Source: Escherichia virus TH58 | Sequence record: MT446423.1 | Reading direction: 5' to 3' (one strand) | Length of the DNA: 64,000 nucleotides | Shown here: in pieces, positions 2,402 through 53,976 of the stretch | Position numbering within the stretch: position 1 is the first letter of the stretch | How the letters are laid out: each line of letters begins with the position of its first letter | Made by a program: the position numbers and the translations under genes | The notes under the pieces: model-generated | Told to the model about the DNA's origin: nothing | The model's database searches: none | Seen by the model: only the letters and a program-made list of their open reading frames with translations

Positions 2402-2923
2402 ATGGCGCACTTTAATGAATGTTCACAACTTATTTCTGGTGTTGATAAAGCAGAAGAAGCTTATTTTAATGCTCTGATTCACGAAGATAAAGACCCACTT
2501 CAGGTAATGCTTGATATGCAGAAATCTTTACAGGTTCGTCTGGCAAATGACAAGCCTGATCATAACAAACATCCTGATGAATTGGCCACTGCCGGCGATG
2601 TTGTTGATTGGTTGCGTAATCAGAAAGATTATATTGATGATGAATTCCGTGAACTGCTGACTTCACTTGGTGGTATGTCCAACGGTGAAAAAGCCGCTAG
2701 CTCTGTATGGAAGCCATGGAAAGCACAACATGCTGAATATCGAAATCGTCGTATCGATGAACTGTCTCCTGAAGACCAGCTTGAAATTAAATTCGAGATG
2801 ATTGATATCCTCCACTTTGTTCTGAATATGTTCCAAGGTCTGGGACTTTCCGCTGAAGAAATCTTTAAACTGTATTACTTGAAGAATGCTGAAAACTTCG
2901 CTCGCCAAAACCGAGGTTACTAA
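2402..2923 (+). CDS. 56: dCTP pyrophosphatase (dCTPase, T4 gp56-like, MazG fold)
   Basis: N-terminus MAHFNEC.. and overall sequence recognisably T4 gp56-like; start chosen at internal ATG after RBS. Confidence 0.85.
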   Translation: MAHFNECSQLISGVDKAEEAYFNALIHEDKDPLQVMLDMQKSLQVRLANDKPDHNKHPDELATAGDVVDWLRNQKDYIDDEFRELLTSLGGMSNGEKAASSVWKPWKAQHAEYRNRRIDELSPEDQLEIKFEMIDILHFVLNMFQGLGLSAEEIFKLYYLKNAENFARQNRGY

Positions 2924-2989
2924 TGGCTCGTTTAAATAAACGACAGCTTAAGAAAGCCCACAAGAAACGTATTGACCAGCTATTTAAAA

Positions 2990-3310
2990 ATGATAACAGT
3001 GAGCTTATTTGTAAGCTCCTGTCTAATCAGCTTCAGCATGTTAGTCAATTATCAGACCATCTACATATGGTTGATTGGGTTGCAAATGAAACTTGATTTT
3101 TATGCATGGCAAAAAGCCGGGAGACCGGCTAATAAAGCATTCGGCTCTGATGGATATAGTACTAGACTCCACTGGAAATTTAATACTCCGGATGATTATT
3201 CTCCGGTAATAATTAACGGTGATGTTGTTATATTAGCTAAATTCGGATATTTTATTGTCCCGAAGAAATTTATTATAAATACACCTGTAATTAAACAACA
3301 AAGGAGTTAA
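2990..3310 (+). CDS. hypothetical protein with N-terminal TM segment
   Basis: track ORF starts at TTG 2972; first ATG at 2990; hydrophobic N-terminus. Confidence 0.3.
   Translation: MITVSLFVSSCLISFSMLVNYQTIYIWLIGLQMKLDFYAWQKAGRPANKAFGSDGYSTRLHWKFNTPDDYSPVIINGDVVILAKFGYFIVPKKFIINTPVIKQQRS
3274..3281 (+). promoter_or_regulatory. late promoter (TATAAATA) for soc
   Basis: exact TATAAATA 32 nt upstream of soc ATG. Confidence 0.5.
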
Positions 3311-9593: not shown

Positions 9594-9623
9594 GTTTACA
9601 ACCAAGGATGGTTGGAGTATAAT
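9594..9623 (+). promoter_or_regulatory. T4-type early promoter with spacer hairpin
   Basis: GTTTAC, spacer AACCAAGGATGGTT inverted repeat, TATAAT. Confidence 0.55.
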
Positions 9624-9653
9624 CTTTCTATCTTAACCAAACAGGAAAACATT

Positions 9654-10148
9654 ATGAACATCAATACTACGGCTACTTACATCCTGAAAGACGAAAAACA
9701 AATCAACTGGTACGGTGCTTCAGTGCGAGCTTATGAAAAGTTTTGTGAAATTTTAGGTGCCACTCAAGGTAATAGTTTCACTATTGTTAACTTCATCAAA
9801 CAAGCTGAAGGTCCTTGGTTATTCTTAGAAATTAAAAATTCATATGGTACAATTTCTACTACCGCCCTTCCAAGCACCGACTTTGAACTGTTGATTGAAG
9901 AAGCACCTGTTAAAGATGGTCTCCACTTTGATATGGATATCGCTTGTATGTACGGTACTCTGATTAAGCCTATTGAGCCTACTGATTTGTTGTGTAAAGC
10001 TGTTTCGATTCGTCGTCCGTTTGCAGGTCCAGTGAGTGGATGGGTAACTGATCAGTGGATTGAAGACGGCGTTGAACTTCTGAACGTTGTTCATGCAGGT
10101 GATTTTAGTGTAGTTCCACGTAGTGCTGTGGTTAATATCCTTAATTAA
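9654..10148 (+). CDS. hypothetical protein, paralog 1 of tandem triplet
   Basis: C-terminal module GWVTDQWIEDGVELLNVVHAGDFSVV shared with next two ORFs. Confidence 0.55.
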   Translation: MNINTTATYILKDEKQINWYGASVRAYEKFCEILGATQGNSFTIVNFIKQAEGPWLFLEIKNSYGTISTTALPSTDFELLIEEAPVKDGLHFDMDIACMYGTLIKPIEPTDLLCKAVSIRRPFAGPVSGWVTDQWIEDGVELLNVVHAGDFSVVPRSAVVNILN

Positions 10149-10150
10149 TG

Positions 10151-10180
10151 TTGTACATCCAAGGATGGATGGAGTATAGT
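10151..10180 (+). promoter_or_regulatory. T4-type early promoter with spacer hairpin
   Basis: TTGTAC, spacer CATCCAAGGATGGATG, TATAGT. Confidence 0.45.
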
Positions 10181-10210
10181 GAATTCAATTTAAACAAAGA
10201 GAGAGAAATT

Positions 10211-10708
10211 ATGATTACTATTGGTGAAATCCTTCGTGTATCTCCTGCTTCTCGTTCTAAAGCTGCAGGTCGTCTGGTTGAAGTAGCAGGGCTTCGTACT
10301 AACGGCATGGGACGTGTTAAAGAAGTTAAAGTTCGAATCATGCCCAGTTTTGGCGGACAAGAGGCCCAGTATGCTTACGTAAGTCCTAAATTCCTGGAAA
10401 AACATATACGAGTCCAATTTGCTTCAAGCGAAGAAGTTGCACCTGCACACTTTGCTTCAAACGATATCGTTGAGCCTACTACACAGTTCAAATGGGCCCT
10501 TTGCAAAGGCGTTGAATTTATAACCGATAAAGAATTTGATTACATCGACGAATACGGTTATCCAAGCAAAACTGATATTATGTGCGGCTTCATTAGTGAC
10601 CAATGGGTTGAAGATGGTAAAAAGTTATACAATATTGTATTTTTAGGTGACTTCCGAGTTGTTGAAGAATCTGAAATCACTCGCTATGTTTCTCCTCGTA
10701 AAGCTTAA
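10211..10708 (+). CDS. hypothetical protein, paralog 2 of tandem triplet
   Basis: shares N-terminal ASRSK..LVEV and C-terminal GFISDQWVEDGKKLYNIVFLGDF with paralog 3; start at 10211 aligns with paralog 3 (an ATG at 10148 is also possible). Confidence 0.55.
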   Translation: MITIGEILRVSPASRSKAAGRLVEVAGLRTNGMGRVKEVKVRIMPSFGGQEAQYAYVSPKFLEKHIRVQFASSEEVAPAHFASNDIVEPTTQFKWALCKGVEFITDKEFDYIDEYGYPSKTDIMCGFISDQWVEDGKKLYNIVFLGDFRVVEESEITRYVSPRKA

Positions 10709-10717
10709 GGAATTATT

Positions 10718-11137
10718 ATGAATATTGCAAATCTCTCTATTGGTGATTATGTACACGTATCAGATGCTTCTCGCTCTAAAGTTGTCGGGAAGTTGGTCGA
10801 AGTTCTTTCTGTGAGTGATCCGGTTTTTGGACGTAACGAAGTTAAAGTTCGTGACGCTGATGGTAACATTGGTTACGTTAAAAGCCAATTCATTGAACCA
10901 GAAGAAAAAGCGTTCAAATGGAAACTGTGCAGATCGGTTTTAGTTGTAAAAGACCATGAATTTACTATTGCTGCTGCAACTGACGGGTCTCCATGGAAAA
11001 CTAAGCAAATAGCCGGATTTATTAGCGACCGTTGGGTAGAAGATGGTGTTAAGCTTTATAACATCGTTTTCGCTGGGCAGTTCATGGTAGTTCCTGAGTT
11101 CCAAATCAAAAAATATTGTCCAGCATCTTTTGCATAA
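10718..11137 (+). CDS. hypothetical protein, paralog 3 of tandem triplet
   Basis: GFISDRWVEDGVKLYNIVFAGQF module; AAGGA RBS. Confidence 0.55.
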   Translation: MNIANLSIGDYVHVSDASRSKVVGKLVEVLSVSDPVFGRNEVKVRDADGNIGYVKSQFIEPEEKAFKWKLCRSVLVVKDHEFTIAAATDGSPWKTKQIAGFISDRWVEDGVKLYNIVFAGQFMVVPEFQIKKYCPASFA

Positions 11138-11141
11138 AGTT

Positions 11142-11170
11142 GTTTACTTCTCCTCTAGATGTGTTACTAT
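11142..11170 (+). promoter_or_regulatory. T4-type early promoter
   Basis: GTTTAC, 17-nt spacer, TACTAT, TAGACCTATC box. Confidence 0.5.
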
Positions 11171-11198
11171 AGACCTATCAAAACAAGAGGAGAATATT

Positions 11199-11426
11199 AT
11201 GAAACGTCAAATCATTAAAAATGTAACTACTGATTCAAACATCGATGAGTTTGAAGATGTTCTGTTTAATCCTGATTTAGTTGTTGTACAGAAAAACTGG
11301 ACCGAATTTTTATGCTACACCGAAGTGGTTTACGTTTACGAAAAACTCGGTGATGAAATGCCTATCTACGGTATCTTCCGTGAAATCACTGAAAACGGTA
11401 CAACTTATTGGAAGGAAACTTACTAA
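11199..11426 (+). CDS. hypothetical small protein
   Basis: ATG 11199 after GAGGAG RBS, downstream of early promoter. Confidence 0.45.
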
Positions 11427-12509: not shown

Positions 12510-14330
12510 ATGATTAAAAATGAAATTAAGGTATTGTCAGACGTAGAACATATTAAGAAACGTAGTGGCATGTATATTGGTTCTTCGGCCAAAGAAGCCC
12601 ACGAGCGTTTTTTGTTTGGTAAATATCAACAAGTTGAATATGTTCCTGGTCTGGTTAAATTAATCGATGAGATTATTGACAACTCGGTTGATGAAGCTAT
12701 TCGTACATCATTTAAGTTTGCAAATAAAATTGATGTGCAAATTAAAAATAATCAAGTTTCTGTTGAAGATAACGGACGTGGTATTCCTCAAGGTTTAGTT
12801 ACCGACCAAACAGGTGAACAAATTCCTGGGCCTGTAGCAGCCTGGACTATTCCAAAGGCTGGCGGTAACTTTGGTGATGACTCTGAACGTAAGACTGGTG
12901 GTATGAATGGCGTCGGTAGTAGTTTAACTAATATCTTCTCTACGTTGTTTACAGGCATCACGTCAGATGGTGAAAATGAAATCACTGTTAACTGTTCAAA
13001 TGGAATGGAAAACAAATCATGGACTTCTAAGAAATCTAAAGGTAAAGGCACTAAAGTAATCTTCACTCCTGATTTCTCTTCATTCGAAGAGCATAATTTA
13101 TCTCAAATTTATTTAGATATTACTTTAGACCGACTTCAAACATTGGCAGTCGTTTATCCTGATATCAAGTTCACATTTAATGGTAAAAAGGTTGATGGTA
13201 ATTTTAAACGATTTGCTAAACAATTTGGCGAAGATAACATCATTCAAGAAAATGATAAAGTCTCTATAGCATTCACAACATCACCAGACGGCTTCCGTCA
13301 TTTAACTTATGTGAATAACATCCATACCAAAAATGGCGGTCATCATGTTGAATGTGTAATGGATGATATCTGCGAACATCTTTTGCCGGGTATTAAAAAG
13401 AAATATAAGGGTATTGAAGTCACTAAAGCTCGTGTTAAAGAATGTCTCACAATGTTGATGTTTATTAGAGACATGAGCAACATGCGTTTTGATTCTCAGA
13501 CTAAAGAACGTTTAACGTCAACGTATGGTGATATTCGTAATCATATCCAATTGGATGCTAAGAAAATTGCTCAGGCACTTCTTAAAAACGAAGCCTTGAT
13601 TATGCCTATTGTTGAAGCAGCATTAGCTCGTAAATTGGCAGCAGAAAAGGCTGCAGAAACTAAAGCAGCTAAAAAGGCAACTAAAGCTAAGGTTCATAAG
13701 CATATTAAAGCTAACCAATGTGGTAAAGATGCAGATACGACATTGTTTTTAACAGAAGGTGATTCGGCAATTGGTTATCTCATTGATGTTCGTGACCGTG
13801 AACTACACGGCGGATTCCCATTACGTGGTAAGGTGATGAATAGCTGGGGTATGTCATATGCTGATATGATGAAGAACAAAGAGCTCTTTGATATCTGTGC
13901 TATCACAGGTCTTATTCTTGGTGAAAAGGCAGAGAATACAAACTATCGTAATATTGCAATTATGACCGATGCCGATCATGACGGTCTTGGAAGTATTTAC
14001 CCGGCTTTGCTTGCTTTCTTTAGTAATTGGCCTGAATTGTTTGAACAAGGACGTATTCGCTTTGTTAAAACACCTGTAATTATTGCACAAATTGGCAAAA
14101 CTCAAAAATGGTTTTATACTGTAGCTGAGTATGAAGAAGCCAAAGATACACTGCCTAAGCATAGTATTCGATACATCAAGGGATTGGGCTCACTTCAGCG
14201 GGATGAATATAAAGAAATGATTCAAAACCCTGTGTACGATGTAGTTAAACTTCCTGAAAATTGGAAAGAACTATTTGAAATGCTCATGGGTAACGACCCT
14301 GAACTCCGTAAAGACTGGATGCTTGGTTAA
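12510..14330 (+). CDS. 39: DNA topoisomerase II large (ATPase, GyrB-like) subunit, fused 39/60 form
   Basis: 606 aa; GHKL ATPase N-terminus and Toprim region; continuous ORF, not split as in T4. Confidence 0.9.
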   Translation: MIKNEIKVLSDVEHIKKRSGMYIGSSAKEAHERFLFGKYQQVEYVPGLVKLIDEIIDNSVDEAIRTSFKFANKIDVQIKNNQVSVEDNGRGIPQGLVTDQTGEQIPGPVAAWTIPKAGGNFGDDSERKTGGMNGVGSSLTNIFSTLFTGITSDGENEITVNCSNGMENKSWTSKKSKGKGTKVIFTPDFSSFEEHNLSQIYLDITLDRLQTLAVVYPDIKFTFNGKKVDGNFKRFAKQFGEDNIIQENDKVSIAFTTSPDGFRHLTYVNNIHTKNGGHHVECVMDDICEHLLPGIKKKYKGIEVTKARVKECLTMLMFIRDMSNMRFDSQTKERLTSTYGDIRNHIQLDAKKIAQALLKNEALIMPIVEAALARKLAAEKAAETKAAKKATKAKVHKHIKANQCGKDADTTLFLTEGDSAIGYLIDVRDRELHGGFPLRGKVMNSWGMSYADMMKNKELFDICAITGLILGEKAENTNYRNIAIMTDADHDGLGSIYPALLAFFSNWPELFEQGRIRFVKTPVIIAQIGKTQKWFYTVAEYEEAKDTLPKHSIRYIKGLGSLQRDEYKEMIQNPVYDVVKLPENWKELFEMLMGNDPELRKDWMLG

Positions 14331-14344
14331 TTGATAGATGTCCT

Positions 14345-14375
14345 AAGCTCCTGAAGGAGCTTCATTTTAATTTTT
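14345..14375 (+). terminator. rho-independent terminator after gene 39
   Basis: AAGCTCC-TGAA-GGAGCTT hairpin plus T-rich tail. Confidence 0.55.
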
Positions 14376-14389
14376 AATAAGGCTTAATT

Positions 14390-15490
14390 ATGAAAGTTAT
14401 GTTTATCCCATCTCGTGCGGTCCCATTTAATCCTGACCGTGTACAAGGTGGCCTTGAAGCAGTACATTTAAATGTGTTGAAATATTTAGTTTCTATTGGT
14501 GCTGATATTGATTATATCGGTTTTGATAATGACACGTTTGGTGACTGGAAAGTTACACACCATCCTGTTGGTCATCTGACTAAATTCAGTCTAGGTATGA
14601 GTTATACTATGGCTCGTAAGATTGTTGAACTAGCCGGCATCCATGAATACGATTTTGTTGTTACTATGGAACCGACTAAACTAACCGTTCAGGCAATTAA
14701 AGACGCAGGTCTCTCTAAAGTTCATAAGAATTTTATGGCAACACCATTTGAACCGGTATCTCGTGGCATTGTTCAAATTTGGGACCAGACTATTCAAATT
14801 CATAAGAATGGTGGTAAGAGTTATGCTCCTACTAAAGCCTTCCGTGAATTTGAACGTAAATATTGTTATATGACTTCAGGTCTGACTGACAAAATTGATT
14901 ATGATTATTGGCGAGCAAATCCGTTGTTTGAAGCCGAAGATTATCCGGTTATTTGTTTGAATGAGAAACCTGAAGTTCTTCCGGCGACTGATTTGATTAT
15001 TAGTGCACAACGTTATGACACTAAAATGCGTCGTACTGATGTTGCTCTTGAAGCGATTAAAGCACTAGGCGAAAATGGTGTAGGATATTGTCCAAGCAAA
15101 TGGGCACCACCAGCTAAATATCCTGTTATTATTGATGCTCAACATAGTGAAATCATGGAACGTCTTAAAACAGCTAAAGCACTTATTAATACGTGTCCTG
15201 ACACAGGTACGGTAGAGAATAGTTCTATTGAAGCCATCTCTAAAGGTGTCCCTGTAATCCAGTTAGTTTTTAAGGATTATCCTCATGCGACATTCGAATA
15301 CGACCCAGATACTGTGCGTGTAGAAATTGATTCCTCTACTCCTAAGAAAGAAGTAGTTGCGCTTTACACAAAAGCTGTATTAGAATTCACTGACACATAC
15401 GAAGCTCGAGTTAAACGTGCTGAAGCAGTATGGAAGAAGTATAATCGAGATGCAGTTGTTGCGATGTGGGATAAAATCTTCACAGCGTAA
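14390..15490 (+). CDS. putative GT-B fold DNA glycosyltransferase
   Basis: 366 aa; N-terminus resembles T4 alpha/beta-glucosyltransferase starts; C-terminal E...EA..G.PVI GT-B-like motif. Confidence 0.5.
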   Translation: MKVMFIPSRAVPFNPDRVQGGLEAVHLNVLKYLVSIGADIDYIGFDNDTFGDWKVTHHPVGHLTKFSLGMSYTMARKIVELAGIHEYDFVVTMEPTKLTVQAIKDAGLSKVHKNFMATPFEPVSRGIVQIWDQTIQIHKNGGKSYAPTKAFREFERKYCYMTSGLTDKIDYDYWRANPLFEAEDYPVICLNEKPEVLPATDLIISAQRYDTKMRRTDVALEAIKALGENGVGYCPSKWAPPAKYPVIIDAQHSEIMERLKTAKALINTCPDTGTVENSSIEAISKGVPVIQLVFKDYPHATFEYDPDTVRVEIDSSTPKKEVVALYTKAVLEFTDTYEARVKRAEAVWKKYNRDAVVAMWDKIFTA

Positions 15491-15582
15491 ATCCTGAATA
15501 GCCTGAGGCACTATTACACATAAGATGATAAATTATATGGTCTTTAGTAATAGTGCCCTAGCAATCTACTGAAGAGAATATT

Positions 15583-15783
15583 ATGAGAACGTATAACGTA
15601 GACTTGGAACTTTTTGATAAAGCAGTGCTCCGGGAATTCCGGCTTATCCAAAGATTTTTTGATATCGAATCAGCTGAAGCCTTTAAAGAACGCTTTAAGG
15701 AAATTCGATATAAAATACAAAACGATACAGCTACTAAAGAAGAACTTCTTGAAGTAGCAGAAATTTTTAAACGTAACTTGTGA
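15583..15783 (+). CDS. hypothetical small protein (rIIA.1 position)
   Basis: 66 aa ORF with GAAGAG RBS immediately upstream of rIIA. Confidence 0.45.
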   Translation: MRTYNVDLELFDKAVLREFRLIQRFFDIESAEAFKERFKEIRYKIQNDTATKEELLEVAEIFKRNL

Positions 15784-15795
15784 TGAGAGAAAAAT

Positions 15796-18009
15796 ATGAT
15801 TATTGAAACGGCTAAAGAAACGATTATTGGTTCAGGCGGTAAGAGCACAGCATTTACTATTCAAGGCAATAGCAAAGTTTATAAGATTTTGTCTAATGAC
15901 CTTTATACAAACAAAGAATTGGCTTGTGTACGTGAATTAATCACAAACTGTATCGATGGACAAATTCTTAACGGTTGCACTGATAAGTTTATTGTTCAGG
16001 CTCCAGGTCGTTTAGACCCGCGTTTTGTAGTTCGAGACTTTGGTCCTGGTATGAGTGATTTCACCATTCGAGGTAATGACGAAGAGCCAGGAATCTATAA
16101 CTCATATTTTGCTTCAACTAAAACATCGAGTAACGATTTCATTGGTGGATTCGGACTCGGCTCTAAAGCTCCACTAGCATATACCGATACGTTTAACCTT
16201 ACGTCTTATCACAACGGTGAAGTTCGTGGTTATGTAATTTATCAAGATGACAGTGGTCCACAAATTAAGCCAACCTTTGTAGATAAGATGGGCCCTGATG
16301 ACCGGACTGGCGTTGAAGTAGTTGTGCCTGTTAACCCAGAAGATTTTGAAAAGTTCGCATCTGAAATTGCATATGTTATGCGTCCTCTAGGTGATATTGC
16401 AGAAGTTCGTGGTGTTAAAGATATCAAATACTTCCCTGAATTTGACGATGTATATTTGGCCAAGGAAGCTCCATGGGGTGAACGCGGTAATATCATGGCT
16501 GTTTATGGCGGTATTGTATATCCAATCGGAAGTGTTATTAAAGAACAAACGTGGATGATGACGCGATGCACTACAGCTTATATTAAATTCCCTATGGGTG
16601 AACTAGATGTAGCTCCGTCTCGTGAAGCATTGTCATTTGATAAACGTACAGTAGCAAATATCCATAAACGTGTTGCAGAAATCGATGCTAAATTGTTCGC
16701 TGAAGATTCTAAGAAATGGATTGATTGTAAATACCCACGTCATGTGTTCCGTGAAATTGATTCTCTTGGCTATACCGCTCGTAAATACATGGAAAAGGCC
16801 GGGTCTAATATTGAATCACTGAAATACTCTAAAGAACAACTAACTTATTCTGAGTTGTACAAACGTTTTAAAATGGGGCCTGAGTGGTGTAATCTTGGTG
16901 TCGTATACGATATCGTTGAATCCCCTCGTCTTCGTCGTATTCGTGAAAGCGGTAGCTCAACGGCAACCATTTCAATTAACAGTCTGATTGGCATTAACAT
17001 TAAAAATGTTGAAATTGTTATTGACGACGTTAAGGGACGCGTTCCATTAATGCGAGCTCTTAATTCAATTGAAATGTCTAAAGACGAGGTTAAATTAACC
17101 GGTAAAGTTCCACGCGGTTTTGGTAAAAGCGTACTATTCGTTGACCCTACAGACGAAGATGCAATGAAACTTCTGGAACGCCTTAAAGTTATCTTTGATG
17201 GCGACAACATTAACATGTACAAGACTTCAGAGCTTTTACAAATCGTTAAGCCATGGATTGAAGTCAGGAAACGGACTAATGAGCCTCGTCCTAAATCGCC
17301 AAGTGCTCATCGATTCTTTAAGAATGAAAACGATGTTTGGGTATCAGAAGACCTCTTTATTCCGGCAAGTGAAGCAGATGAAATCCAAGGTTATGCTATA
17401 GTTCGTAATCGTTCTAATGCTGAATGTCTTGACGCAGATAAAGGTTGGTTGAACTATGACTCCAATTTCTTAACCCGTATTGCTGATTTGTCAGGTATTA
17501 AAGAGTTCACTGTAGTTCGTCCACAGATTGCTAAGAAAGTTCGTAAACTTGGTGAAGTAGAATGCTTGTTCGAAAAATCAATTAATGACTATATTACGCT
17601 AATCGATAAAGTGGATTATGATGAGTATGTATCACCAAGTCGTAGAGCACAGCCTTATTTGAATCATATTACTCGTAATGAAGAGCTTAACTTCCTTAGT
17701 AAGTATTTTAGCTCTAAGAACAAAGAAATCAGTAAAGACTTTGCAAAGCTCTCAACAGTAAATAATCGTTGGGGATGGAATCGATTCGCAGGTGCTACTA
17801 ATACAGACCTGAATAAGAAGTTAGAATTGTGTGCTAAAATTTTCGATAAGCTTAAAGATAATGCTTACGATAATGATGATAAAATGGTTATTGAATTTGA
17901 AACCAATTATCATATTGTGTCAGAATACATGGGACGACGTGGTACTCTTTCTAAAGAACAGGTCGCTCAAATCGTTAAATTCATGAAGGCCGTGGAAGCG
18001 GCCAAATAA
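15796..18009 (+). CDS. rIIA: rIIA protein
   Basis: 737 aa; size, position next to rIIB, GHKL-like N-terminal region. Confidence 0.85.
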   Translation: MIIETAKETIIGSGGKSTAFTIQGNSKVYKILSNDLYTNKELACVRELITNCIDGQILNGCTDKFIVQAPGRLDPRFVVRDFGPGMSDFTIRGNDEEPGIYNSYFASTKTSSNDFIGGFGLGSKAPLAYTDTFNLTSYHNGEVRGYVIYQDDSGPQIKPTFVDKMGPDDRTGVEVVVPVNPEDFEKFASEIAYVMRPLGDIAEVRGVKDIKYFPEFDDVYLAKEAPWGERGNIMAVYGGIVYPIGSVIKEQTWMMTRCTTAYIKFPMGELDVAPSREALSFDKRTVANIHKRVAEIDAKLFAEDSKKWIDCKYPRHVFREIDSLGYTARKYMEKAGSNIESLKYSKEQLTYSELYKRFKMGPEWCNLGVVYDIVESPRLRRIRESGSSTATISINSLIGINIKNVEIVIDDVKGRVPLMRALNSIEMSKDEVKLTGKVPRGFGKSVLFVDPTDEDAMKLLERLKVIFDGDNINMYKTSELLQIVKPWIEVRKRTNEPRPKSPSAHRFFKNENDVWVSEDLFIPASEADEIQGYAIVRNRSNAECLDADKGWLNYDSNFLTRIADLSGIKEFTVVRPQIAKKVRKLGEVECLFEKSINDYITLIDKVDYDEYVSPSRRAQPYLNHITRNEELNFLSKYFSSKNKEISKDFAKLSTVNNRWGWNRFAGATNTDLNKKLELCAKIFDKLKDNAYDNDDKMVIEFETNYHIVSEYMGRRGTLSKEQVAQIVKFMKAVEAAK

Positions 18010-23925: not shown

Positions 23926-24215
23926 ATATAAAGACAATCGAAGAGCAGTATAAAGATTACTCTAAGTTGGTTCATTCAGTAAAAACAATCAGCATTATTA
24001 ATCTTCAGGTTAATAATTTAACTCTTAATTTTGGTAATGAACTGGCTAAATATTGTTGTATTATTAATACAAATCTAACACCAGTTGATATGTATGGTTC
24101 ACGCCAAACTGCTGATATCAAGATTTCAGGTGAATCACTGAATGATGTATTAGATACCGCCGCCAAGATTCGAGCTTTCTGTGCAGTTAACAATTATGAG
24201 GCCTTAATCAAATGA
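23922..24215 (+). CDS. hypothetical protein
   Basis: 97 aa; ATGA coupling. Confidence 0.45.
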
Positions 24216-27256: not shown

Positions 27257-30200
27257 TTAGGCTAAGCGAACGATATAGTTAAAAGCAATGTTTTTAACAG
27301 TGTTTTCGGTGTTACCGGTGCTGTTAACAGTAATTGTATGGCCATGAGCAGCAATAGAAAACGTGTGAGTATGTGAACCTATAGCCACTGTATGGTTATG
27401 TGTACCGATATCAGTATAGTGACTATGTTCTGGAGCGACTGATGTAGTACCTGACCACGTGTGTGAGTGTAGACCATCCTCGTTAGTCCATGTCGTTGCT
27501 GTCTGACCGGAACTGGATGCTGCAAATCTACCGGACTGAACGTTAGCGTTGTTACCAAGTGAAGCAGTGTGTGCGTGCCTACCGTCAGTACTCGTTGTAC
27601 CGGATACTGTATGAGTATGTGCACCAGCGGTGTTAGTATGTTTACGGCCTAGATCTGTTGTACTAACAGTTTTAGTCCCTAAATCAGTAGCGCTTGTAGT
27701 ACCAGACAAAGCAGTAGTGGATGCAGAAGCAATATGGGTATGGGACTTAATACCATCAGCTTCAGCACTCAACACTGCGCGACCGCTCGGTTTACCCTTA
27801 ATAGTCTGCCCTCGCATATCAGGAATTACGCCACTAGGATACGCAACAGCTAGCTTTGGATATGCAGACTTATCAAAGGTCTGGCCTTCCATTAAAGCAA
27901 ATCCGGCTGGAACTGAATCACTCGGCCATGGAATCGGAGCACCGACCGGATAAGGTATCTGGGCATCAGAATACATCATATACACTTGTCCGAGTATATG
28001 GCCTGCAGGTAATTCTTCTACTGGTGTTTGGGCGCCGCTGTTAATCCCAACAACTGACACGGTGGAGTTGGCTGAGCACTCATATTCAACCACCAACGAG
28101 TTTGCATAGGCCCCAACATATACATAAACATCATACACATCACCGGAGGTATTCATGGTAGCAATATTAGTGAAACCCTTATCGGTACGAGACCATAAAG
28201 TAGCGTTAATGGCTTTAGGATTATTATTGCCTGTACGAAGAACAATTTCTGTAATAGTAGCTTGTTCCGGAGAATTGGCATTAAATCCACTACCACCCAT
28301 TACTTTAAAGCTTGCAGTCCCTACAGATTGTGGAATATTTACTGTAGCAAATTTATACCATCCAGCGCTTGCGCCTGCGGCACTCCAACCACCCGTATTA
28401 ACCTTACGGTCTAAAGTGGTGTTCAAGTTAGAAAAGTTACCAGTACCGCCAGTAATATTACCATCAGTTCCTAATTTAGTATTTCCTATTTTAAGAGGCT
28501 TAGTAATATCGACAGTATCAGAGTTTAATGCAATACCATGGGCGTAGGTGTAATTATGCATACGAACAATGTTTCCACCATCACCAATACCTACATACCA
28601 TTTTGTAACATCTGCTTTGCGTCCTTGGATGAAGTTAGAAGACTCTTGTGTTGGAGCATTTATTCTAATAGCATCGGCGGCAGTATTAACTGTTATACGC
28701 TGAGATGCTGTAGTACCTGATGTATCTACTTTAAACTTGCCCGCACCAATATCAACAACGTGATTCATAGAAACTGCGCCGGTGCCTAACTCAATACTAA
28801 ACGGGCGAAGGTTGTTTATTTCACCATTTTCCCCTTCATTTTCGTTAGTTGGGATAATATGTAATGATGTTTCTGAGCGTCGGAAAATGGCACCATAACG
28901 AGAGTTCCAAATTCTTAATGCATTGATGATGCCACCGATTTTAACTGGTCCATTTGCAGTTAAATTGTTGGTAAGTAAATTACCAAATGTCACAGTTTGA
29001 CCTTCACCGACGCCAAGGTTATTACGGGCAGCAGCTACAGAAGTCGCTCCAGTACCACCTAAATTAATCGGTTGAACACCAGATACAACTTCCTGCCATG
29101 CAGTCCACGATCCGCCTTGTCCGTAGCGAACATATACGCCTAAAGCATTACCGCTCTTTGTAGTAAAGGTCTGCTTACATGACCAGTCGCTATCGGAAAC
29201 TTTACGCAAAGACAGAACTTCGAGAACAAAGTTTCCATCAGAGGTAGGTTTGTTCAATATATTAGAACCACCACCAGAAGATGTACATTTATACAGCTTA
29301 CGAGTACCTAAATCTGAACGTCTAATAATCAGGCTATTAAGGTCAATAGTCTGGTCAGTAATATCAACTGCTTCTTCAACACCACGGTAAGTTTGCTTAA
29401 AAACTAAATCACCTTCTACTTCAAGACCGTTAGGTTTAATTAGAATATACTTACTAGGAGATGGAGTAACAACTGTAGGTTGATAACCAAATTGCACGTG
29501 TCCTTCAGGAGTAATTTTAAGCATTGCTACACCAGCGCCATCTCCAATTTTACGAGCAAGAGTTAATCTGCTATACTTATCAGATTCCTCTGAACCTAAA
29601 TCAACAAACGTTCCGTTGGTGTTTTCGACTTTTAAGTTAGCGTTAATAGTCAAGTTACCGGTCATGGTATCGCCGGTTTTACTTACTTTCTTATTATCAC
29701 CAGCAACAATGTCATTTTTAATAGAAGTCAAATAGTTGTTAAGGTTACCACCAAACAATGAACCTGACGTAATGTTACCGTCTTTGGTTAGCATCGCAGC
29801 CCCGCCGATTTTAACTGCTACAGGAACCTCAAATTGGCCATCAGAGCGGAAACTGTACTCGCCGGCAGAAACACCACCTGTGGTTTTTGCCCGAATACGT
29901 ACAGTGCCTAGGTCTGAGGTGTTTGGAGTAGCCCAAATCACACCACGTTCTATACCATTGTTATTTTCAAACCAAACATGTGTATTCGCATCGACATCTG
30001 GAGCACGAGCATAATAAGAACCAGACCGAGCATAATAAGTTGTTGCAATTATAGCGGCTCCAGAATTAATACCGCCCGTGGTATTAATACCAGCTAGAGT
30101 CTGAACATACGCACCATTTAATGTTAATTTACCGTTGATAGTCACATCACCATCGACTTGCCCACCTTTAGCGAAGCCAAGGTCGATAATTTGACCTGCA

Positions 30201-47318: not shown

Positions 47319-47347
47319 GGCTTTATCAACAACACGAGGAGAAAATT

Positions 47348-47848
47348 ATGAATATGCAATTGATTACTAACGATATGGTTGTGGCAGCATTTGGTGATTC
47401 TACAGATGGAATCCGGGTCTTTAAGAAAGGCCGTGCAGTTGGTTATCTTACAGACCTTCGTACTACTCTAGCGAAAAATGCTAAAAAGAAATTAAAGCAA
47501 AAGGAATATTCCACCCGATACGCTGAAGAGAAACGTGAAGCAATGCCGGAAGCAGTTAATGCTATGGTAGAATTTCTTCAAAACAATTTGACTAAATACG
47601 ACGCTAATGTGTTCGTTAATATTAGTCAACCTAACGTACATATCGCGGGTATAAAATTCTACATCATTTGCGACCCTCTTACCGACAAATTCAACCGTCT
47701 CGGAATTTCAAGTCCGTATCATACAGCAGAAGAGTTGTGTGTATTGTTTGAATCGTACAAAATTCAGTGTGATGGTCCGAAAACCGTTCTTATCAATGGA
47801 TTATCCCGAGATGAAATCATTGAGATTATTAAAACATGCTTAAAGTAA
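47348..47848 (+). CDS. alc: Alc, inhibitor of host transcription on C-containing DNA
   Basis: 167 aa from ATG 47348 (as T4 Alc); position between RNA ligase and pseT. Confidence 0.55.
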   Translation: MNMQLITNDMVVAAFGDSTDGIRVFKKGRAVGYLTDLRTTLAKNAKKKLKQKEYSTRYAEEKREAMPEAVNAMVEFLQNNLTKYDANVFVNISQPNVHIAGIKFYIICDPLTDKFNRLGISSPYHTAEELCVLFESYKIQCDGPKTVLINGLSRDEIIEIIKTCLK

Positions 47849-51234: not shown

Positions 51235-52227
51235 ATGTTACCTGTCGTCAGAAAACTTATTTCTCCAAAAGAACTGGCTGAGATTATTCCTTTGTCGGAA
51301 GCTTACGCATCACAAGTGGCTTCTCATCGCGAACAAGTTAATTCGATTATGAATGGTGAAGACCCACGCAAACTTATTGTTGTAGGTCCTTGTTCAATTC
51401 ATGACCCTATTGCTGCTGTTGAATACGGCAAACGACTGGCTGAACTTCAAACTCGTCTTCCTAATGTTCTGTTAGTGATGCGCGTTTATTTTGAAAAGCC
51501 TCGAACTACCGTAGGTTGGAAAGGTCTTGTAAATGATCCATATCTTGACGGAAGCTTTGATATGAACCACGGTCTTATAGTTGCACGAACATTGTGTCGT
51601 AAACTTCTACGTATGGGACTTCCATTAGCAACTGAAGTATTAGACCCATTCACGATTAAGTATCTTTCTGGTATTTTCTCATGGGTTGCTATTGGCGCCC
51701 GTACGACTGAAAGTCAGACACATCGTGAAATTGCTTCAGGTCTACCGATGTGCGTAGGCTTCAAGAACGCAACTAATGGTTCTATTAAAGTAGCTACAGA
51801 CGCGATGTATAGTGCCGCCTGGCCTCATCGGTATATGGGTATGGACGTCGATGGTACTGTAGGCATTGTTGAAGCTGAAGGTAATCAGAATACGCATATC
51901 GTATTGCGTGGCGGGACTAACGGCCCGAACTATCATTCTTCTGATATTCAAGAAGCTTCTAACAAAGCAAGTGCATTAGGTCTGAATCATTATGTAATGG
52001 TTGACTGTAGCCATGCAAACGCTGATGGGTATTATAGCAATCAAATTGGTATTGGTAAAAATTTAGCAGCTAATGATTTGGTCAAAGGAATTATGATAGA
52101 ATCATTCCTACATGAAGGAAATCAAAAAATTTCTGATAATATGTCCTATGGCGTTTCCATTACCGATGCGTGTATCAGTTGGGAACAAACTAAAGAGCTG
52201 TTAACTTATATTAATAAGGTTCAATAA
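51235..52227 (+). CDS. class I (AroG/AroF/AroH-type) 3-deoxy-D-arabino-heptulosonate-7-phosphate (DAHP) synthase
   Basis: 330 aa; blocks VGPCSIHDP, RVYFEKPRTTVGWKGL, IGARTTESQ and VESFLHEGNQ match E. coli AroG active-site regions; TAAGGA RBS. Confidence 0.8.
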   Translation: MLPVVRKLISPKELAEIIPLSEAYASQVASHREQVNSIMNGEDPRKLIVVGPCSIHDPIAAVEYGKRLAELQTRLPNVLLVMRVYFEKPRTTVGWKGLVNDPYLDGSFDMNHGLIVARTLCRKLLRMGLPLATEVLDPFTIKYLSGIFSWVAIGARTTESQTHREIASGLPMCVGFKNATNGSIKVATDAMYSAAWPHRYMGMDVDGTVGIVEAEGNQNTHIVLRGGTNGPNYHSSDIQEASNKASALGLNHYVMVDCSHANADGYYSNQIGIGKNLAANDLVKGIMIESFLHEGNQKISDNMSYGVSITDACISWEQTKELLTYINKVQ

Positions 52228-52808
52228 TGAAAGCTAGCACATATCTTCAAATTGCTTATTTGATTTCTCAAGAATCAAAATGTTGTTCATGGAAAGTTGG
52301 TGCCGTCATTGAAAAAGATGGACGCATTATCTCTACTGGATATAATGGTTCACCGGCCGGTGGCGTTAACTGTTGTGAACATGCATCTGAAAATGGTTGG
52401 TTGAAGAATAAACCAAGCCCGGTCATCGTTGCTGGCCATAAAGAAGGCACTACAGCATTTGGACGGGTAGATAATTTTGTTTTAGCTAAAGAACATCGGG
52501 CCGCTCATAGTGCATGGTCTGCTAATAATGAAATCCATGCAGAATTGAATGCAATTTTGTTTGCAGCTCGTAAAGGTAATTCTATTGAAGGTGCTACGTT
52601 ATATACGACGCTTTCCCCATGTCCTGATTGCACTAAAGCTATTACGCAGTCAGGTATTAAAAAGGTTGTATACGCAGAATTATACGATCGATCTCCTGAA
52701 AATTGGGCAGACATTCTAAAACAAGCAGGTATTGAAGTAATTCAGTACTCTCGTAATAATCTTCGTTCTCTGAATTGGGAACAAATTCGAAACTTTTGTG
52801 GTGAATAA
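52227..52808 (+). CDS. cd: dCMP deaminase
   Basis: 193 aa; zinc motifs HAE and PCxxC (SPCPDC); start overlaps DAHPS stop (TAATG). Confidence 0.85.
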   Translation: MKASTYLQIAYLISQESKCCSWKVGAVIEKDGRIISTGYNGSPAGGVNCCEHASENGWLKNKPSPVIVAGHKEGTTAFGRVDNFVLAKEHRAAHSAWSANNEIHAELNAILFAARKGNSIEGATLYTTLSPCPDCTKAITQSGIKKVVYAELYDRSPENWADILKQAGIEVIQYSRNNLRSLNWEQIRNFCGE

Positions 52809-53869: not shown

Positions 53870-53947
53870 GTTAAATCGAGGAGCCGTCGAACTGTTTGAT
53901 TAATGATTTGCGAATCATTATAGTTTTAAGACCTCAACAGTTTTACG

Positions 53948-53976
53948 GTGTACCTCTTGAATGTATTTTGTACTAT
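53948..53976 (+). promoter_or_regulatory. possible early promoter
   Basis: GTGTAC -35, 17-nt spacer, TACTAT -10; begins long structured leader. Confidence 0.4.

Follow-up and report, generated by a model that had tools for sequence, protein, structure and literature searches.

Background

The cytosine of phage RB69 DNA has been identified by MS/MS and NMR as beta-D-Araf-(1-3)-alpha-D-Araf-5-hydroxy-2'-deoxycytidine (Lee et al. 2026, NAR, PMC13326640). In that work the base fragment was found at m/z 128.05, not 142.06, the arabinose was ether-linked to 5-hydroxycytosine, 5hodCMP was made by an FMN-binding ThyA homolog, and RB69 gp3 was proposed as 'beta-arabinosyltransferase 2'. Thomas et al. 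2018 (PMC6024577) had reported ara-hmC in RB69 and had proposed ORF003c as the arabinosyltransferase; the earlier hmC assignment is called erroneous in the Durham Collection paper. According to published work, Thanatos has a single ara-GT and mono-arabinosylated DNA. In vitro, gp76 and gp77 of Acinetobacter phage DLP3 add Araf from UDP-Araf to RB69 DNA; both proteins had to be present for this activity, and in the published experiments bare 5hoC DNA was not a substrate for any single GT.

T4 has two DNA glucosyltransferases. In the T4 record, b-gt is flanked by 42 and uvsX, and a-gt by 47 and 55 (47.1 and mobB/55), and the interval from 39 to rIIA is occupied by rIIA.1, 60, 60.1 and mobA. A preliminary description of a gene between 39 and rIIA in Escherichia virus TH58, made with the same GT-B argument that was used in 2018 for ORF003c, presented its product as a candidate for a non-glucose modification of hydroxymethyl-dC. 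Which step of arabinosylation would such an enzyme catalyse, the first on the base or the second on the first sugar? Here we compare the gene, its product and its surroundings with the described systems.

The gene, its neighbours and its flanking signals

The window analysed is a stretch of 64,000 nucleotides of TH58 (MT446423.1). It is collinear with positions 44377-108813 of Escherichia phage ST0 (Mosigvirus JS09), the closest complete genome; the aligned blocks have identities of 91-97%, for the most part 95-97%. The glycosyltransferase gene, the orthologue of RB69 ORF003c/gp3, is at 14390..15490 on the + strand, stop codon included; it is in the ORF list, its product is 98.9% identical to that of RB69, and the match to PDB 9IQZ has an E value of 5.5e-250. 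It starts with ATG, ends with TAA and encodes 366 aa, exactly as first described. The protein begins MKVMFIPSRAVPFNPDRVQGGLE, and residues 274-290 read TVENSSIEAISKGVPVI. The 5' neighbour is gene 39 (12510..14330, 606 aa, unsplit), and the 3' neighbours are rIIA.1 (15583..15783, Pfam T4_RIIA1), which precedes rIIA, and rIIA itself (15796..18009). The location between 39 and rIIA therefore stands as first reported, and the comparison that had been drawn with the T4 interval and the T4 a-gt and b-gt loci agrees with the T4 record. The ORF is judged to be a conserved gene, and no chance reading frame, because it is found in 155 phage records at 95% or higher amino acid identity and because 15 of its codon differences from the ST0 gene are synonymous and 6 non-synonymous.

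The topoisomerase gene 39 is itself of a different form from that of T4. It is one ORF of 606 aa (12510-14330, +) with the gene 60 part fused, and it has neither the mobA insertion nor the translational bypass element of T4.

The ribosome-binding site AAGG (14379..14382, +) was read directly from the sequence, 7 nt 5' of the ATG. A terminator scan found a weak terminator-like hairpin, AAGCTCC-TGAA-GGAGCTT with a T-rich tail (14345..14376, +), between the stop of gene 39 and the start of the transferase gene; its stability is not above that of shuffled sequences (z -0.48). A scan for sigma-70 promoters gave no promoter-like site in the 59-nt gap 5' of the ORF, and three in the wider region, which is fewer than in shuffles. 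Because the scan of the gap was empty and the hairpin was no better than shuffles, no promoter or terminator of its own is claimed for the transferase gene. Just 3' of its stop codon and before rIIA.1 there is an 11-bp perfect inverted repeat, GGCACTATTAC / GTAATAGTGCC (15507..15557, +). The RNA fold at this position has -25.2 kcal/mol (z -3.92), and none of 200 shuffles was as stable. The repeat may serve RNA stability or termination at the 3' end.

Other features of the window

Several further features of the window were recorded. At 51235-52224 (+), directly 5' of the dCMP deaminase gene, there is a 330-aa AroFGH-type DAHP synthase (NCBIfam TIGR00034, E 7e-128), the gene for which resembles a phage auxiliary metabolic gene that serves the entry step of the shikimate pathway. 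The TIGR00034 match to the AroFGH type ruled out a KdsA-like, arabinose-5-phosphate-consuming enzyme at 51235-52224. About 350 bp just 3' of the dCTPase gene (2925-3272) have no counterpart in ST0; there, a 57-aa ORF (2923-3096) and a 112-aa ORF (2972-3310, Pfam DUF7422) are present, and the equivalent place in T4 holds the segF homing endonuclease. Likewise, 27401-30161, 23927-24209 and 53870-53972 have no nucleotide match to ST0. By collinearity, the first of these would fall in the gene for the distal long-tail-fibre subunit, the usual host-range hypervariable region. Three consecutive paralogous ORFs of 178, 186 and 139 aa at 9612-11137 (+) have the C-terminal motif GFISD(Q/R)WVEDG.KLYNIVF.G.F.VV in common. 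The alignment between the window and ST0 breaks at 11162-11201, where some 540 bp of ST0, including gp104, are missing.

Identity and distribution of the transferase

Searching 50,697 phage records with tblastn returned homologues of the transferase in 211, from Mosigvirus-type or Acinetobacter phages only. The 155 records at 95% identity or higher are Mosigvirus-type coliphages or Shigella phages; another 55, at about 42% identity, are Acinetobacter phages with two copies in each. The identity is 98.9% to RB69 ORF003c over all 366 residues and 99.7% to HX01, and the homology extends over the full length to the Acinetobacter-phage paralogs (40-43%, 64 invariant columns). The window protein differs from RB69 ORF003c by a handful of substitutions, none at positions invariant in the family, and the RB69 gene likewise has gene 39 and rIIA.1 as its neighbours. 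Among the matches listed, most are labelled 'hypothetical protein' and a few 'DNA alpha-glucosyltransferase'; the record of Bas47 AlbertHofmann has 'putative hmC-arabinosyltransferase'.

Scans of the protein against Pfam (E<=10) and NCBIfam found no families, and it fails every GT model in Pfam. PHROGs gave a single match, to phrog_8302, a family without annotation. A sequence search of the PDB found one protein, 9IQZ/9IR0 (369 residues, E 5.5e-250, 99% identical with four positions different), and neither the single-sequence nor the profile search of the PDB found anything beyond it. The descriptions seen through Foldseek call this protein 'phage HY126 glycosyltransferase', 9IQZ being the apo form and 9IR0 'with UDP', and the entries were released on 2025-07-16. 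They reportedly belong to a paper by He et al. in Nat Chem Biol (2026). A word-indexed search of 5.8 billion proteins gave 12 clusters at 90% identity, and reading a profile over all 1.84 billion cluster representatives gave 23 matches at E<=0.001, only 8 of them at E<=1e-30. Judged by these searches, the family is very small.

The gene is already known, and it is no novelty in itself, since it was proposed in 2018, is labelled in Bas47, has a 99%-identical counterpart in a crystal structure with UDP and was assigned in 2026. We put the probability at roughly three in four that the ORF encodes the Mosigvirus DNA arabinofuranosyltransferase RB69 gp3 / ORF003c, that this is the same protein as the crystallised HY126 glycosyltransferase, and that it adds the second Araf. 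What is added here is minor: the contrast with the distribution of GT1, the duplication in Acinetobacter phages, the ancestral position within a cluster and the variant EX7E motif.

Fold, domains and conserved motifs

An AlphaFold2 model built from a 13-sequence family alignment (pLDDT 88, pTM 0.84) has the alternating strands and helices of two Rossmann-like domains, which would face a cleft, and C-terminal helices that probably return to the N-domain. Foldseek matched the model first to 9IR0/9IQZ (TM 0.95-0.96) and then to the GT4 enzymes BshA, PimA, MshA and WaaG; T4 beta-glucosyltransferase was absent from the best 60 matches. On its sequence and model, the protein is a soluble, UDP-binding GT-B glycosyltransferase distantly derived from the GT4 family. 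The GT-B fold claimed in the preliminary description was thus correct, because both the model and the Foldseek matches fit it, as does hhalign to the GT4 relatives, and the protein resembles cellular GT4 enzymes more closely than it does either of the two T4 DNA glucosyltransferases.

The N-terminal Rossmann-like domain (approximately residues 1-190, 14390..14959, +; elements E2-6 to E180-184 of the model) is presumed to be the acceptor-binding half, and GT4 relatives match Pfam Glyco_transf_4 over the equivalent residues. The C-terminal Rossmann-like domain (approximately residues 198-335, 14981..15394, +; elements E203-206 to H319-332) would be the UDP-sugar-binding half, consistent with 9IR0 with UDP. 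The C-terminal helices (residues 337-365, 15398..15484, +; modelled as H337-351 and H353-365) probably fold back onto the N-domain, which is typical of GT-B enzymes.

Three groups of residues stand out in the family. The first is the glycine loop G20-G21-L22-E23 after the first beta-strand (14447..14458, +), in which G20, G21 and L22 are invariant and which aligns with the GG of GT4 relatives. The second is the basic pair R208...R214 (QRYDTKMR, 15011..15031, +), invariant in the family and aligned to the R-x5-K/R of GT4 relatives. Thomas 2018 (PMC6024577) pointed to G20, to an Arg numbered 207 and to E281, and aligned G20 with G15 of T4 a-gt, which is a beta-phosphate contact. From established knowledge of GT4 enzymes and from the 2018 work, R208 and R214 would be the diphosphate-binding residues.

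The third is a variant of the EX7E motif, T272-G-T-V-E276-N-S-S-I-E281-A-I-S-K-G-V-P-V-I290 (15203..15259, +), defined by invariant columns and by hhalign mapping to GT4. E281 is invariant and aligns with the second, ribose-binding Glu of the GT4 motif. The first Glu is replaced by an invariant T272, so that the complete EX7E is absent, and E276 is an invariant Glu peculiar to this family. A changed active site would at least be in keeping with the altered motif. UDP binding is taken from the title of 9IR0, which names a UDP complex of the 99%-identical protein; together with E281 this indicates nucleotide-sugar binding in the C-terminal half with a ribose-contacting Glu. The roles given to G20/G21, R208/R214, E276 and E281 are putative and come from the alignments.

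Relationship to GT4 enzymes and to the T4 glucosyltransferases

The protein does not reach the curated Pfam thresholds of Glyco_transf_4 and Glycos_transf_1. The weak tail of the profile hits nevertheless includes genuine GT4 proteins (P0020, P0023, P0024, P0026 and P0029) that pass Glyco_transf_4 and/or Glycos_transf_1, and hhalign of the family against these relatives gave a probability of 99.9% (E 2.7e-35, 355 columns). Homology to bona fide GT4 members was found in this way, and the link was visible only through the exhaustive search of representatives combined with hhalign. From the cellular GT4 enzymes (BshA 3MBO/6N1X, PimA 2GEJ, MshA 3C4Q, sucrose-phosphate synthase 6KIH, WaaG) the transferase differs by Thr272, by the extra Glu276 and by matching nothing in Pfam or NCBIfam. 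It would differ also in its acceptor, which is likely to be a sugar on DNA, and in the published beta linkage of the second sugar.

T4 a-gt (PDB 1Y6F/1XV5) has 9% identity to the transferase and no BLAST similarity; its locus, sugar and acceptor are different, and it is structurally further from the transferase than many cellular GT4 enzymes are. Neither sequence similarity nor close structural similarity to T4 b-gt was found. A tblastn search of the window and of the complete ST0 genome with T4 a-gt and b-gt gave nothing better than E = 2, and the ST0 interval between 47 and 55, the position of a-gt in T4, contains small ORFs only. That the gene is no orthologue of a-gt or b-gt, as had been supposed, is borne out.

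The arabinose cluster and the origin of the locus

The Acinetobacter phage KARL-1 has two homologs, gp208 and gp209, directly after genes for an A5P isomerase, a 553-aa NTP-transferase/kinase, a phosphatase, the ThyA-like protein, GT1 and a nucleotide kinase. A T4-like metagenomic contig carries the most divergent homolog found (P0011, 36% identity), there as a single copy within the same cluster, with the kinase on one side and uvsX on the other. In ST0 this cluster separates DNA polymerase from uvsX, some 6-8 kb 5' of the position that corresponds to the start of the window; the genes found in that part of the T4 genome are 42 and b-gt. Its transferase gene is about 20 kb away from the cluster, at the 39/rIIA junction. 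The 5hodCMP synthase, GT1 and UDP-Araf genes were all seen in ST0, KARL-1 and the metagenomic contig (L003). In TH58 the cluster would lie outside the window, 5' of its start, and we infer its presence from relatives that are 96-97% identical. Given the in-cluster homologs of KARL-1 and the T4-like contig, this comparison puts the ancestral position within the modification cluster, and it is only in Mosigvirus that the locus is non-canonical.

The two paralogs of the Acinetobacter phages share 57% identity with one another and 40-43% with the window protein, and they form sister clades in a neighbour-joining tree. By tree and identity matrix, the Mosigvirus gene is thus co-orthologous to both, and the duplication lineage-specific. 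The Mosigvirus gene is marginally closer to the gp208/gp77 type, which holds the ancestral slot. DLP3 gp77/gp76 correspond to KARL-1 gp208/gp209 and share 43% and 40% identity with the window protein over the full length, with the same invariant residues. The DLP3 genes form a tandem pair within the arabinose cluster, whereas the Mosigvirus gene is single-copy and relocated.

In ST0, KARL-1 and the metagenomic contig alike, the ThyA-like protein has RSQN, which is the D169N signature of 5hodCMP synthases, at the position where T4 gp42 reads RSND and phage td RSVD. ST0 gp070, the ThyA-like protein, is 25.5% identical to T4 gp42. Those encoded beside GT1 (L001 1-607, which is ST0 gp070; L002 6814-7521; L003 7853-8554) keep the dCMP-specifying Asp together with RSQN, and several GenBank records still call such genes dCMP hydroxymethylase or thymidylate synthase.

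The catalysed step

GT1 (ST0 gp071, which is RB69 gp46:47) was found in 348 phage records, in phages of Escherichia, Klebsiella, Enterobacter, Serratia, Proteus, Yersinia, Kosakonia, Providencia and Acinetobacter. Because GT1 occurs in 348 records and the gp3-type enzyme in 211, GT1 is, on this distribution, the universal transferase and the gp3-type enzyme accessory. The copy number of the latter can be set against the sugars on the DNA: there is no copy in the mono-arabinosylated Thanatos, one in RB69 and NP, which carry mono- and di-arabinose, and two in DLP3, which carries tri-arabinose. These comparative data support an extension role, the addition of the second sugar, since GT1 is broader in distribution than the gp3-type enzyme, the copy number tracks the extra arabinoses, and homologs lie in the arabinose/ThyA-like cluster.

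In the pathway that we propose, dC would be replaced by 5-hydroxy-dC, made as 5hodCMP by the flavin-dependent ThyA homolog encoded 5' of the window, and GT1 would attach alpha-D-arabinofuranose to the 5-OH. The transferase would then use UDP-arabinofuranose to place a second, beta-linked D-Araf on O3 of the first sugar, on DNA. The product would be di-arabinosyl-5-hydroxycytosine, which would protect the phage genome against defences by restriction, CRISPR or glycosylases. It is our inference that the single-copy enzyme of Mosigvirus performs the second addition; the DLP3 pair needed both members, so that an enzyme on its own may act in another way.

GT4 is a retaining family. The first arabinose is alpha-linked and the second beta-linked, so the second transfer would be an inversion if the donor is UDP-alpha-D-Araf, which would be unusual for a GT4-like scaffold. 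Because GT4 enzymes retain but the second sugar is beta, the assignment to the second rather than the first step is less than certain. The enzyme might be an inverting beta-D-arabinofuranosyltransferase on a GT4 scaffold, in which the loss of Glu at T272 and the gain of E276 (possibly with His138) mark a change of mechanism and an adaptation to a donor in furanose form and to an acceptor sugar carried by DNA, and which works alone, unlike the DLP3 pair; we put this forward tentatively, as a doubtful proposition.

The same stereochemistry bears on the proposal of 2018 with the base corrected, in which the transferase would be the first, base-proximal arabinosyltransferase, putting alpha-D-Araf on the 5-OH, and GT1 would do something else. 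Retention of the GT4 kind fits an alpha product from a UDP-alpha-sugar, ORF003c was the only GT detectable in RB69 (Thomas 2018, PMC6024577), and the published reconstitution leaves the initial arabinosylation step out. However, many phages, including Thanatos, have the ThyA-like/arabinose cluster and GT1 without a homolog of the transferase (348 versus 211 records), DLP3 gp76/gp77 are inactive on 5hoC DNA and extend arabinosylated DNA, and two paralogs are present exactly where three sugars are found. We therefore regard a base-proximal role as unlikely.

The transferase could instead glycosylate an acceptor other than DNA (host LPS or another envelope component, a small-molecule thiol or a protein); its gene would then have entered a plastic locus and have no relation to DNA modification. 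Its closest structural neighbours do act on lipids, LPS, bacillithiol or mycothiol precursors or sucrose phosphate, and the Mosigvirus gene is far from the arabinose cluster; we give such an acceptor only a very small chance.

The transfer of arabinose, as a non-glucose sugar, to hydroxymethylcytosine can be dismissed almost completely: it agrees with the ara-hmC of the 2018 report and with the presence of the dCTPase (2402-2920), Alc (47321-47845) and dCMP deaminase (52227-52805) genes, but the published MS/MS and NMR data identify the base as 5-hydroxycytosine with ether-linked Araf, and the ThyA-like protein of ST0 has the RSQN signature and is distant from T4 gp42. All three genes had been correctly recognised in the preliminary description; they do not point to hmC in particular, because they suit any phage that replaces dC. 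The placing of the gene in an RB69-like arabinosylation system holds, while the hydroxymethyl-dC base does not, and the enzyme is most likely a second, sugar-on-sugar transferase and not one that modifies the base itself.

Conclusions

The reading that we prefer remains the extension transferase, and the value of the present analysis lies in correct annotation, as the labels among the records listed are mostly 'hypothetical protein' and in a few cases 'DNA alpha-glucosyltransferase'. In a 2025 Cell Host Microbe paper by Mahler et al., deletion of the Bas46 arabinosyltransferase reportedly sensitises the phage to a defence system. Mosigvirus genomes with arabinosylated 5-hydroxycytosine are guarded against type II restriction, DNA glycosylases and some CRISPR-Cas systems, and the same modification lays them open to type IV enzymes such as BrxU. 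These outcomes change with how many arabinoses are attached, so that a transferase that extends the first sugar would shape both the host range of the phage and the ease with which it can be engineered.
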